Virus genome (UHGV): UHGV-0305615
DNA from: a virus
DNA: 30,965 bases
Reading direction: 5' to 3' (one strand)
Part shown: positions 4,815 to 10,483 of the stretch, piece by piece
Layout of the letters: each line of letters opens with the position of its first letter
How positions within the stretch are numbered: the first letter of the stretch is position 1
The notes under the pieces: generated by a model
What the model saw: the letters and a program-made list of their open reading frames with translations, nothing else
What the model was told of the DNA's origin: nothing
Database searches by the model: none
Program-made: the position numbers and the translations under genes

Positions 4815-5399
4815 TTATTGTTTGTTTTTTTCGTTCTGGTTGATGACAAATTCAATGTAACTTTCGATCTTTGCCTTCTCTGTTTCAGGTAACAATGCGT
4901 AGCGCGAGCGGTCATAGTTGATAGTTGCAGGGTCATGCGGATGAATCAGTAGTTCATATCCGTGACGCCCGAATGCAGATGCAACATTCTCCAGGGTGGA
5001 AATGGAAACGCTGACTTCATTGTTTAACAGGCGGCTTATTGTCACCTGGGCGACGCCGGATGCGCGGTGAAGTTTTCCCTGAGTTGAAAGGTCGCGGCTT
5101 TCACTCATCCAGCGTTCCAGGTTGTGAGCTGCCAGCTGACCAATGTCGCTTGGGCCGACAGGCTGAAAACCTTCCTGAGAAAGCGAGCGATCGATATCAA
5201 GCCAGTTACGGGGTTTATTGGCGGCAGCTTCAATTTTTCGCGCAACCTGGTCGCCGATAACCTTCTTGCCAAGAGCCCAGCGGTTTACCAGATTTGCCTG
5301 AGTTCCAAGTTTTTCTGCCATCCGCGTCTGAACACCATTGAATTCACGGTCGATCAAGTCGTTGAGATTTTGCCTGCGGACGTCCTGGATACTTTTCAT
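4815..5399 (-). CDS. Prophage repressor, CI-like, two HTH domains, no peptidase S24 (autocleavage) domain
   Basis: 194 aa; two XRE-like HTH stretches (MAEKLGTQANLVNRWALGKK... and ASGVAQVTISRLLNNEVSVSISTLENVAS...); divergent from Cro-like gene; dyad operators on both sides. Confidence 0.7.
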   Translation of the reverse strand: MKSIQDVRRQNLNDLIDREFNGVQTRMAEKLGTQANLVNRWALGKKVIGDQVARKIEAAANKPRNWLDIDRSLSQEGFQPVGPSDIGQLAAHNLERWMSESRDLSTQGKLHRASGVAQVTISRLLNNEVSVSISTLENVASAFGRHGYELLIHPHDPATINYDRSRYALLPETEKAKIESYIEFVINQNEKNKQ

Positions 5400-5454
5400 T
5401 TTCTGGAAAATCGCCTCATATATGAATCAGTAGATGATTCAATTTAAAGCAATA

Positions 5455-5469
5455 TTACCCAACAGGTAA
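5455..5469. promoter_or_regulatory. Predicted operator (dyad TTACCCAACAGGTAA) in repressor/cro intergenic region
   Basis: Exact TTACC-N5-GGTAA dyad. Confidence 0.55.
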
Positions 5470-5502
5470 ATGCACCTCATAGGTAACTATCCTTGATTTT
5501 TG

Positions 5503-5517
5503 TTACCTTATGGGTGA
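5503..5517. promoter_or_regulatory. Predicted operator (TTACCTTATGGGTGA) overlapping rightward promoter
   Basis: One mismatch in right half; lies within the spacer of a TTGATT -35 / AT-rich -10 upstream of the Cro-like gene. Confidence 0.45.
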
Positions 5518-5553
5518 ATATTTATTATCTGAAATAAATATCAGGCAATAGCT

Positions 5554-5784
5554 ATGAGCGATAACGGACATTTCGATTTCAAAAAGCACTGGCTTGCACT
5601 TACTCCGGATGAGCGTGAAGCCTTCGCACAGGAAGCCGGAACGACGAGTCACTATATCCAGACTCACTTAACAGGTAAGCGCAAAATGCCAGGTAAAGTA
5701 TTGATGAATGGGCTTTTTAAAGCCTGTAAAACAAGACAATGGCTGCGCTCAAAAGCAGAACTGGCATACTTCTTCTACTCATGA
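5554..5784 (+). CDS. Cro-like HTH regulator
   Basis: 76 aa; divergent from repressor; HTH-like EAFAQEAGTTSHYIQTHLTGKRK; assignment mostly positional. Confidence 0.55.
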   Translation: MSDNGHFDFKKHWLALTPDEREAFAQEAGTTSHYIQTHLTGKRKMPGKVLMNGLFKACKTRQWLRSKAELAYFFYS

Positions 5785-5805
5785 TATCCAGCTACAACCC
5801 TCTGT

Positions 5806-5829
5806 AGACCGCCACCCGGCGGTCTTTTC
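5806..5829 (+). terminator. Rho-independent terminator after cro-like gene (tR1-like position)
   Basis: AGACCGCC-ACCC-GGCGGTCT hairpin followed by TTTT. Confidence 0.65.
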
Positions 5830-5934
5830 ATATCTATTCGTACCTCAAAGGTAATAAAAAACCAAATCTGGTTGATCTTTTTTTTGTGTCAGCACAAAAT
5901 GACCGTAATCCCAATACTAATAACAGGGCTTACC

Positions 5935-6135
5935 ATGGAAATCATTACACGTATTGATGCCGCAAAGCGCGGACTTAAACGCTACTACACCGGAAAAACA
6001 TGTAAGCACGGACATGACAGTGAACGCTGGGTTTACAACGGACACTGTGTTGAGTGCACCATGGAATCAAACCGTCGTATCAGGGCAGAGATTAAGCAGA
6101 TCATGATTAATTCCTCCCCACAACATTCAAGCTGA
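5935..6135 (+). CDS. Hypothetical small zinc-ribbon protein (66 aa)
   Basis: Track ORF 5872..6135; ATG 5935 chosen (alternative ATG 5899); CKHGH...CVEC cysteine/histidine cluster. Confidence 0.4.
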   Translation: MEIITRIDAAKRGLKRYYTGKTCKHGHDSERWVYNGHCVECTMESNRRIRAEIKQIMINSSPQHSS

Positions 6136-6150
6136 TAGCGGAGATTAATC

Positions 6151-6942
6151 ATGAGCAGACATGCAACAGATTGGGCCTGGGAGACAGATCCAGGTAGCTC
6201 GTCATTAAAGCTCATACTGCTCTCGATGGCTGACAGAGCCGATGAATATAACCTCTGCTACCCCAGCATAGAACGCCTCGTTAAAGACACTTGCCTGAAT
6301 AAAAAAACCGTGCAGGCCGGGCTTATATCGCTCATGAAAATGGGGCTTATTTCAGATACCGGAGAGAGAAAGGGAGCGACGAAAAGAGTGCGGGTTTTCT
6401 CTCTTAATATAACCAAAAACGGGAACATTAAAGGCAACCGGGAAGGGGGTAATGAACCCGAAAACGGTAATGTTACCGAAAACGGGAATATACCCAAAAA
6501 CGGGATGTTGAATGATCCCAAAAACGGGATCCAGAACCAGTCATATAACCAGTCATTTAACCAAGAGAGGGAGAGCAGGACAAAAACCGGGAATTCTGTG
6601 CCTCATGACCCCGGCGCAAACAACGCCGTGATGAATAACTTTGTTCCTCCTGGTGGGCCAGGGCAATTAGGCAAATTTGTCATGCATGAACAATGGCAAC
6701 CATCAGATGACTTTCTTCGGAAAAGCTCATTGCAGGGAATCTACCTGGACAGTCTGCCAACGGCACAGGAACTTGCAGAGTTCAGAATTTACTGGATGGC
6801 TGAGGGTAAGGCATACCATCAGGCACAGTGGGAGCAGAAGCTGGCAAGGCGGCTGCAGATTAGCAGACAGAAGCAACCAACATTACCTGATAACAACGTT
6901 CCGCACTGGAACAGCCCTGAAGCGTGGGAGGATTTCTTGTGA
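6151..6942 (+). CDS. Replication initiator, lambda-O-like (HTH N-terminus, internal iterons)
   Basis: 263 aa; GGAG RBS; N-terminal HTH-like LILLSMADRADEYNLCYPSIERLVKDTCLNKKTVQAGL; internal DNA iterons produce an Asn/Gly/Lys-rich low-complexity linker; immediately upstream of P-like gene. Confidence 0.65.
   Translation: MSRHATDWAWETDPGSSSLKLILLSMADRADEYNLCYPSIERLVKDTCLNKKTVQAGLISLMKMGLISDTGERKGATKRVRVFSLNITKNGNIKGNREGGNEPENGNVTENGNIPKNGMLNDPKNGIQNQSYNQSFNQERESRTKTGNSVPHDPGANNAVMNNFVPPGGPGQLGKFVMHEQWQPSDDFLRKSSLQGIYLDSLPTAQELAEFRIYWMAEGKAYHQAQWEQKLARRLQISRQKQPTLPDNNVPHWNSPEAWEDFL
6413..6530 (+). repeat. Iteron array (five direct repeats, core CCmAAAACGGkAA) inside the O-like gene; candidate replication origin
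   Basis: Repeats starting at 6413, 6457, 6476, 6493 and 6517. Confidence 0.55.
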
Positions 6943-7724
6943 ACAACGTTTTTACCGCGATACAAAACCGTGACGGAGAAGCCCTTTCTCGCATGTCAGG
7001 TTATCAGCATCAATACGTCAACAATGACAATGTGGTGAACATGTCAGCAGAGAGGCTTGTTGATGCCCTTTTCAAACAGCTGAAACAACTGTTTCCGGCG
7101 GCAGTGGTAACCAACCTGAAGACGCCAGAGCAGGAAGTCGCTGCAAAACAGCAGTGGATTGCTGCGTTTGCCGAAGGTGGGATCCGAACCCGTGAACAGG
7201 TTTCTGCTGGTATGCGCCACGCCCGTGCCAGTGAGTCTCCGTTCTGGCCGTCGCCAGGGCAATTCATCAAGTGGTGTAAAGACAGCAAGATGGTTCTTGG
7301 CGTCACCATTGACGATGTGATGGCGGAGTTTCACCGGTACAGCAAGGAAAAAAGTTTATATCCTGGTGGTCCCGAAAGATTCCCGTGGCGACATCCGGTT
7401 ATGTACTGGGTCGTATGTGATACCCGCCGTGCAATGTATCAGCGCCAGCTTAGCGAGATTGAGGTTGAGAAACACGCGCGCAGGCTGCTCGATGATTGGG
7501 CGAAAAAGGTAGCTTCCGGACAGCAGATACCCGATCCGGTGATCAGCATACAGGCAAAGCGAGAGCCCATGAGTACACCTCCGGACACAGGGAGAGACGT
7601 TTACCATCCACCAGGGCGAAGTTTCGGGTGCATGCCTAACGCCGCCACCCTTGGGGGAATAACACCGGCGCAGTGGCTGATGGAGGAAAACAGGCGGGGA
7701 AAGGCGGCAGGATTTATCAAGTAA
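6939..7724 (+). CDS. Replication protein P-like (helicase loader)
   Basis: Clear similarity to remembered lambda P (SPFWPSPGQFIKWC vs lambda PFLPSPGQFVAWC; NGITTMEQVNAGMR-like block). GTG start 6939 overlapping O-like stop (GTGA) with GGGAGGA RBS; track lists 6924 GTG. Confidence 0.85.
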   Translation: MNNVFTAIQNRDGEALSRMSGYQHQYVNNDNVVNMSAERLVDALFKQLKQLFPAAVVTNLKTPEQEVAAKQQWIAAFAEGGIRTREQVSAGMRHARASESPFWPSPGQFIKWCKDSKMVLGVTIDDVMAEFHRYSKEKSLYPGGPERFPWRHPVMYWVVCDTRRAMYQRQLSEIEVEKHARRLLDDWAKKVASGQQIPDPVISIQAKREPMSTPPDTGRDVYHPPGRSFGCMPNAATLGGITPAQWLMEENRRGKAAGFIK

Positions 7725-7761
7725 TACCAGCGCGATAGCGCATTTTTTTACGTCTTGATAA

Positions 7762-7776
7762 TTACCTGTTGGGTAA
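7762..7776. promoter_or_regulatory. Predicted operator (dyad TTACCTGTTGGGTAA) filling a promoter spacer
   Basis: Exact dyad lying between TTGATA (7755-7760) and TAAAAT (7777-7782). Confidence 0.55.
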
Positions 7777-7823
7777 TAAAATATTCTAAAATCTATTGAT
7801 TTCGTGTATTATGTGGTTTTTAA

Positions 7824-10440: not shown

Positions 10441-10451
10441 GCATGGTACTA

Positions 10452-10466
10452 TTACCAAAACGGTAA
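10452..10466. promoter_or_regulatory. Predicted operator (dyad TTACCAAAACGGTAA) upstream of TerS
   Basis: Exact dyad between terminator and TerS start; extra TTACC half-site at 10469-10473. Confidence 0.5.
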
Positions 10467-10483
10467 CTATTACCACGGTGGTT

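Follow-up and report, generated by a model that had tools for sequence, protein, structure and literature searches.

The principle of a replication origin lying inside the gene of its own initiator has been known from phage lambda for decades. The lambda record (NC_001416) annotates four iterons, ATCCCTCAAAACGAGGGA and variants, which fall in frames 0, 2, 2 and 1 of gene O and are bound by O dimers; plasmid iterons, by contrast, are monomer-binding sites found outside the rep gene, generally in helical phase (PMC5043065). Here we describe a related arrangement in the 30,965-nucleotide virus genome UHGV-0305615 (the whole stretch analysed, hereafter “the window”), where five direct repeats stand within a replication initiator gene of 263 amino acids (6151–6942, plus strand). 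We consider it probable, at roughly 80%, that these repeats are the iterons, that is the initiator-binding sites, of the theta-replication origin of a phiV10-like Escherichia coli prophage, which lies inside the initiator’s own gene as oriλ does in gene O, a reading drawn from sequence comparison throughout.

As in oriλ, the putative initiator-binding repeats are placed mid-gene, between the N-terminal DNA-binding and the C-terminal domains, the sites are read in whatever frame they fall among relatives of the window, and a P-family helicase loader gene follows directly 3′, the origin being transcribed from the early rightward operon (PMC7466680, PMC5043065). The window differs from lambda in its units of 18 bp at 18- or 24-bp spacing, in a triplet of 12-mers that replaces lambda’s roughly 40-bp AT-rich tract, and in the initiator itself, where the N-terminal domain is of the HTH_36 and not the Phage_rep_O type and the C-terminal domain is DnaT-like and not lambda-O-type. 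Iteron plasmids with RepA/π/TrfA-type Rep proteins likewise have repeated, replicon-specific initiator sites adjoining an unwinding element of short repeats, whereas the window sites are dyads inside the initiator gene. The C-terminal single-stranded DNA (ssDNA)-binding domain is shared with Escherichia coli DnaT (primosomal protein I), but the N-terminal oligomerisation domain of DnaT is absent, a putatively sequence-specific winged helix stands in its place, and the genomic setting is a phage replication module including a P-type loader gene rather than a dnaT-dnaC operon.

A repeat array between two domains of the initiator

A repeat search recovered one family of five copies starting at 6405, 6450, 6468, 6486 and 6510 (spacings of 45, 18, 18 and 24 bp), and the pattern CCNAAAACGGKA, with the core CCrAAAACGGkA, matches exactly at 6413, 6458, 6476, 6494 and 6518. 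All five repeats called inside the gene by an earlier sequence-only reading were therefore recovered; the core which that reading gave, CCmAAAACGGkAA, is real, with the amendment that the third base is A or G (r) and not A or C (m), and that the final AA is present in three of the five copies. A single further match to CCNAAAACGGKA, with one mismatch, occurs outside the array in the window, and the six matches at ≤1 mismatch compare with a mean of 0.73 in dinucleotide-preserving shuffles, one of 100 of which reached six.

The array is best described as 18-mers occupying 123 bp in total, with iteron 1 at 6409–6426 (ATAACCAAAAACGGGAAC), three abutting units across 6454–6507 (iteron 2, 6454–6471, GAACCCGAAAACGGTAAT; iteron 3, 6472–6489, GTTACCGAAAACGGGAAT; iteron 4, 6490–6507, ATACCCAAAAACGGGATG) and iteron 5 at 6514–6531 (GATCCCAAAAACGGGATC); Tandem Repeats Finder reports an 18-bp array at 6448–6503. 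The 45-bp gap between iterons 1 and 2 holds a degenerate iteron-like remnant (6435–6444, CAACCGGGAA), and two close relatives have 18-bp spacings throughout where the window has this gap. Together the repeats sit exactly between the coding regions of the HTH_36 domain and the DnaT-like domain. A weak iteron-like site (ACAAAAACCGGGAAT, 6580–6594; ACAAAAAACGGGGAT in phage phiV10) is found further on, beyond the 12-mers, and is not kept in the wider family.

One more sequence of this kind lies far from the array. At 10445–10474, just 3′ of a terminator-like hairpin, GGTACTATTACC-AAAAC-GGTAACTATTACC resembles the junction of iterons 2 and 3 (GGTAATGTTACCGAAAACGGGAA) with the CC..GG distance one base shorter, and may represent either a lone initiator site or a chance match, the expectation at one mismatch being 0.73 per window.

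Conservation of the sites as DNA

Repeats within a coding sequence may be kept for their DNA or for their peptide. All five window copies share one reading frame, giving (T/P)-(K/E)-N-G and the N/G-rich peptide ITKNGN..EPENGNVTENGNIPKNGMLNDPKNGIQ, and the spacings are all multiples of three, hence the window by itself would allow a protein-level repeat, that is an N/G/K-rich linker expanded by replication slippage with the DNA repeats as a mere by-product. We scanned IMG/VR viral contigs for DNA encoding the DTGERKGxT wing of the N-terminal domain, which yielded 112 usable genes and 19 representatives at <85% N-terminal identity, these being 34% to 79% identical to the window. All 19 carry 3–7 copies of a 10-mer (≤1 mismatch) within 275 nt 3′ of the N-terminal domain, so that relatives sharing the initiator domain also have the array, in the same place and at considerable divergence; among 163 control segments taken at these loci, 161 had only 1–2 copies of a 10-mer.

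The copies occur in more than one reading frame in 16 of these 19 representatives. Adjacent spacings are 17 (n = 16), 18 (n = 7), 22 (n = 9), 23 (n = 2), 24 (n = 17) and 25 bp (n = 1), with 28 of the 52 not multiples of three, and one DNA motif is translated into unrelated peptides depending on the phage, NDPKNG as against TVPTTEQFQ or SPNVGT. Where the peptide is [K/E]NG, the asparagine codon is AAC at 31:1, compared with 78:64 elsewhere in the same genes, and the third base of the lysine or glutamate codon is A at 32:0 (332:215 elsewhere), counts which, like the copy counts, pool repeats related by duplication, so that p-values overstate their independence while the direction is still unambiguous. 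These near-fixed synonymous sites are found in genes whose protein domains are only ~45–60% identical.

Because copies stand in different frames and synonymous positions are nearly fixed, it is the DNA and not the peptide that is conserved. This supports the view that selection acts on the DNA and that the linker peptide follows from the DNA sites, in line with the sequence-only proposal that the iterons force the low-complexity sequence of the linker. The linker would then be a tolerant segment whose sequence is set by the DNA, because the DNA must keep the sites. Copy number does change in steps of a full 18- or 24-bp unit, which is what slippage within a repeated coding sequence would produce, yet the reading of one motif in two or three frames as unrelated peptides largely refutes a purely protein-level origin of the repeats; the motif is, moreover, a dyad, and exchange of the N-terminal domain loses the array while the linker role is kept. 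We therefore hold that explanation to be very improbable.

Among 33 close relatives, a strict motif count gave four copies in 2 contigs, five in 8, six in 20 and seven in 3, most of this variation being gain or loss of a 24-bp unit that carries iteron 5. A comparable variation is documented for Stx phages, which have six iterons where lambda has four, with matching extra residues in O (PMC7466680). In both groups iteron number varies among close relatives and linker length varies with it, whereas the Stx phages 933W and P27, with six iterons in gene O, possess true lambda O and ori sequences and share with the window the layout only. Synonymous recoding of iterons has been published for Stx phages, and the method is directly applicable to the window array (PMC7466680).

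Linkage of the array to the N-terminal domain

The array is combined with several kinds of C-terminus. It occurs with a DnaT-like C-terminus and a P-type loader in the window, in PPompW prophages and in small plasmids; with a lambda-O-type C-terminus followed by P in Edwardsiella phage GF-2, whose array also has a lambda-like ori right part (GAGAATTCTGACGAATCCTCAGAC) on its 3′ side; and with unrelated C-termini followed by a DnaB-like helicase in phages AB1 and AP22. The type of C-terminal domain co-varies with the downstream partner gene, which fits a role in recruitment.

The converse exchange is seen in ZX5 and TL-2011b, whose flanks match those of the window at ~96–97% identity, and in Tyrion, with ~80% identity across the module’s 3′ part. 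These three phages keep the DnaT-like C-terminus and P, have N-terminal domains of two other, unrelated kinds, and show no such array. The array thus goes with the N-terminal domain, as would be expected for the initiator’s own binding sites. In the classical view of lambdoid initiators the N-terminal half is specific to the type and the C-terminal half can be exchanged, and the behaviour of the array matches this pattern.

Dyad form of the sites and resemblance to operators

Members of the family share a dyad motif, TCCC-AA..-GGGA. Two of the family loci (L020 and L092) have GTCCCAACGTTGGGAC, a perfect 16-bp palindrome, GF-2 has GATCCCAAAATTGGGAT, and Vibrio phage Her has five copies of CCGAAAACGGTAC placed 24 bp apart. 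In the window, iteron 5 contains a perfect 6+6 dyad, GATCCC-AAAAAC-GGGATC, and is bracketed by GATC sites (6514 and 6528). Lambda and window iterons are alike in their TCCC arm, A-run centre and GGGA arm (ATCCCTCAAAACGAGGGA compared with GATCCCAAAAACGGGATC). The dyad form suggests that the initiator binds as dimers.

In GF-2-type phages, too, GATC makes up the left iteron arm. Four unrelated phages of the initiator family have a gene for a DNA adenine methyltransferase or methylase 0.3–1.3 kb 5′ of the initiator gene, at 961–1524 in the Her locus, 655–1248 in AB1, 80–535 in AP22 and 790–1398 in an EBPR podovirus. Methylation and initiator binding could conceivably be linked.

A different protein, for example the phage repressor, might be the ligand of the sites. 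The palindrome GGTAATGTTACC at 6466–6477 has the same pentamers as the three operators TTACC-N5-GGTAA (5455–5469, 5472–5486 and 5503–5517), which lie in the intergenic region between the divergent repressor gene (4815–5399, minus strand) and the cro-like gene (5554–5784) and overlap a promoter-like site at 5500–5528. The sequence-only reading had placed inverted GGTAA..TTACC half-sites in the iterons generally; they are present, but once only, at the junction of iterons 2 and 3, and not in each repeat. The order of the arms is reversed relative to the operators and the spacer is 2 bp instead of 5 bp (GGTAA-TG-TTACC), the palindrome is kept in only 19 of 33 close relatives, and diverged family members whose immunity regions differ retain the iterons without the palindrome. 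On these grounds GGTAA..TTACC was rejected as an operator, the likeness that the earlier reading had allowed to be coincidental indeed looks so, and binding of the array by the repressor or another such protein is the least probable of the explanations considered, with a very slight chance of being correct.

Further operator-like sequences were observed outside the intergenic region. Another TTACC-N5-GGTAA copy lies inside the cro-like open reading frame (ORF) at 5664–5678, and GTACCTCAAAGGTAA at 5840–5854 is operator-like and placed just 3′ of a terminator-like hairpin (5806–5825), ahead of the replication genes, hence the repressor may control the replication operon through a separate site.

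The 12-mer triplet and the place of opening

Directly after iteron 5, both the repeat search and a period-12 call identified three tandem 12-mers at 6534–6569 (GAACCAGTCATA / TAACCAGTCATT / TAACCAAGAGAG). Equivalent GAAyC units, two or three at 12–13-bp intervals, directly follow the last iteron in 17 of the 19 representatives and run into the A-rich AGAATCTAAAAATAAAAAA in several subfamilies. This element accompanies the iterons and not any type of C-terminal domain, and we infer that it is a candidate unwinding or strand-capture region. The duplex at 6520–6580 is 56–63% AT with mildly low stability (z ~1.1–1.5).

Alternatively, the sites could bind the initiator and serve control only, through autoregulation of the operon, a roadblock or copy-number handcuffing, with opening and helicase loading elsewhere, for example in the AT-rich intergenic DNA at 5840–5935, 5′ of the initiator gene, or at ~7750, 3′ of P. 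The least stable 40-mers within 5400–7800 do lie outside the array, at ~5410, ~5500 and 7750–7770, and plasmid iterons serve both initiation and control (PMC5043065). Against this, iterons with an adjoining conserved element and a P-type loader gene make up the lambda layout, in which the array is the origin (PMC7466680), the 12-mer element follows the last iteron nearly throughout the family, and the GF-2 array is succeeded by a lambda-type right part of ori and a lambda-O C-terminal domain. We consider a control-only function improbable.

Several further points weigh against an origin at the array, beside the pooled counts and the single reading frame of the window given above. No strongly AT-rich tract stands beside the repeats in the window, the least stable 40-mers of the array region reaching only z ~1.5 at 63% AT. 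Strong dyad symmetry is confined to iteron 5, iterons 1–4 keeping just the CC..GG core. Cumulative GC skew turns at ~5–6 kb, which corresponds to the divergent promoters and the switch in gene orientation, and is uninformative on the position of the origin. Lastly, the small plasmid described next has an initiator from a subfamily whose N-terminal domain is no more than 49% identical, and the plasmid itself could have arisen in assembly.

This plasmid, the circular 8,461-bp E. coli pZ1323HEC0067-2 (NZ_CP148379.1), carries dicA-like and cro-like regulators, ydaT, a PPompW-type initiator of the family with repeats, and P, with no other replication gene evident among ORFs of ≥70 amino acids, and in this it resembles lambda-dv. 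A circular “plasmid” of 41,027 bp, pHL15EC-2, has the same replication region and gene order, at a size near that of the 39-kb phiV10-type genomes. Both could be assembly products or induced forms, and we give them little weight for the origin. As a separate observation, pZ1323HEC0067-2 and an 8,600-bp record (NZ_CP130688.1) combine the immunity and replication module of a Qin/PPompW-type prophage with defence-like genes, pZ1323HEC0067-2 also carrying hokD and rem; the two may be natural lambda-dv-like mini-replicons.

The lambda-type placement of the origin within the initiator gene, which the sequence-only reading had suggested, is thus supported by the family-wide array, its frame-independent conservation and its linkage to the N-terminal domain. 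By analogy with lambda, initiation might proceed as follows. Dimers of the N-terminal winged helix would bind the 18-bp dyads at 6409–6531 and form an O-some-like complex, and this nucleoprotein complex would stress the adjoining 12-mers (6534–6569), which may distort or open (PMC7466680, PMC5043065). As in lambda, opening may be assisted by transcription that starts at the early promoter upstream and crosses the gene. The C-terminal domain (CTD) of E. coli DnaT forms filaments on ssDNA that mark the site of helicase loading (PMC13377028), and if the related domain of the initiator behaves similarly, ~ten DnaT-CTD-like domains on flexible linkers could capture ssDNA and/or dock the loader. A search of that paper for specific DnaT-CTD residues returned nothing, and the comparison is made at the level of the domain only. 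The lambda-P-like protein encoded directly downstream would then deliver host DnaB.

Domain composition of the initiator

The N-terminal winged-helix domain is encoded at 6151–6408 (plus strand, amino acids 1–86) and ends in the conserved wing DTGERKGxTKRVRV; Pfam places HTH_36 at amino acids 18–67 (1.8e-10). Residues D69, T70, G71, E72, R73 and G75 are invariant in an alignment of 14 diverged homologues of this domain. A linker of 85 amino acids, rich in N, G and P (22% N, 15% G), separates it from the DnaT-CTD-like domain encoded at 6664–6921 (plus strand). By phmmer against PDB, amino acids 172–257 match DnaT residues 85–170 (9zbt_D, E 1.2e-20; also 4ou6 and 6aep), and the Pfam DnaT DNA-binding domain (PF17948) covers amino acids 176–243 (1.3e-15).

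Phage_rep_O (PF04492) gave no match to the initiator in Pfam even at E ≤ 1. A comparison of the N-terminal domain with lambda O residues 1–115 reached an hhalign probability of 16%, with the helix-turn-helix and wing aligned in register, and we do not claim homology. No plasmid Rep family appears in the Pfam result, which consists of HTH_36 and DnaT only. The earlier label “O-like” therefore holds for layout and predicted function, and fails for sequence, by which the protein is a fusion of HTH_36 and DnaT-CTD. Judged in the same way it is not DnaT, as neither the DnaT N-terminal domain nor the DnaT genomic context fits. The database names “DnaT” and “primosomal protein I” are misleading, because the N-terminus is a winged helix and the gene lies in a phage module with a P-type loader; the RefSeq name is “DnaT-like ssDNA-binding domain-containing protein”, and in PHROGs the protein falls in phrog_1032, “replication initiation protein” (5e-102).

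The replication module and its surroundings

The region 5800–7800 of the window is ~96–98% identical to the Uetakevirus phages phiV10, phiv142-3 and PAS61, and the boundaries of the loader gene were taken from the phiV10 annotation. The loader gene (6939–7724, plus strand) encodes a lambda-P-type protein (Pfam Phage_lambda_P, PF06992, 1.5e-56; phrog_109, “P-like helicase loader”), its GTG start overlapping the initiator stop codon (GTGA); the longest ORF for the loader begins at 6924. Upstream of the replication genes are found, in order, the divergent repressor and cro-like pair with their operators, a terminator-like hairpin and a small Cys-rich ORF.

This last ORF (5935–6135), directly 5′ of the initiator, encodes 66 amino acids rich in Cys and His (CxxGH...CxxC), belongs to phrog_1081 (unknown function) and is annotated as hypothetical in phiV10; an ORF matching it is missing in ZX5 and TL-2011b. 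An Rfam scan of 5400–7800 returned one sub-threshold small nucleolar RNA match, attributable to chance, and does not favour reading the region as an RNA element.

Distribution and significance

The initiator gene is present at ≥90% identity in 424 of 5,426 complete E. coli genomes, and is chromosomal in 432 of 435 places. PhiV10-like replication modules 97–98% identical to the window were also observed in two larger phage records, at 134–137 kb near the record end in PP488543.1 (phage BP9, 138 kb, Vequintavirus) and internally in PP350014.1 (PH444, 115 kb, unannotated); both records have the appearance of chimeric or contaminated assemblies. In its GenBank record, phiV10 has terminators annotated and no origin. 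No description of the array sites was found in the searchable literature, whose coverage mostly leaves out subscription journals, the original genome papers on epsilon15 and phiV10 among them, so that an earlier mention is possible.

If the array functions as proposed, it would place the replication origin of phiV10-like (Uetakevirus) prophages, and the domain composition corrects the names “DnaT” and “primosomal protein I” under which the initiator is filed. It would also be a clean natural case of DNA sites dictating a protein linker, with one motif read in three frames across relatives, and would offer an uncomplicated setting in which to study the role of a DnaT-CTD at an origin. Of all these features, the conservation across reading frames, the 12-mer triplet with its own conservation and the joining of the winged helix to a DnaT-CTD most deserve further study.

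A wider proposal, which we advance tentatively and regard as possible but rather doubtful, is that the DTGERKG winged helix, the dyad iterons and the 12-mers together make up a single portable cassette for origin function, which has been recombined with various helicase-recruitment domains, occurs widely among phages of Enterobacterales, Vibrio, Acinetobacter and Burkholderia and is unannotated in the public records examined, and that members with a DnaT-CTD, the window initiator among them, open the origin and hand off to P-DnaB by a DnaT-like filament on the 12-mer strand. Were this true, the filament hand-off would connect initiation of the lambda type to replication restart by PriA-PriB-DnaT, and it would fit a view of E. 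coli DnaT as the domesticated half of such a phage initiator.

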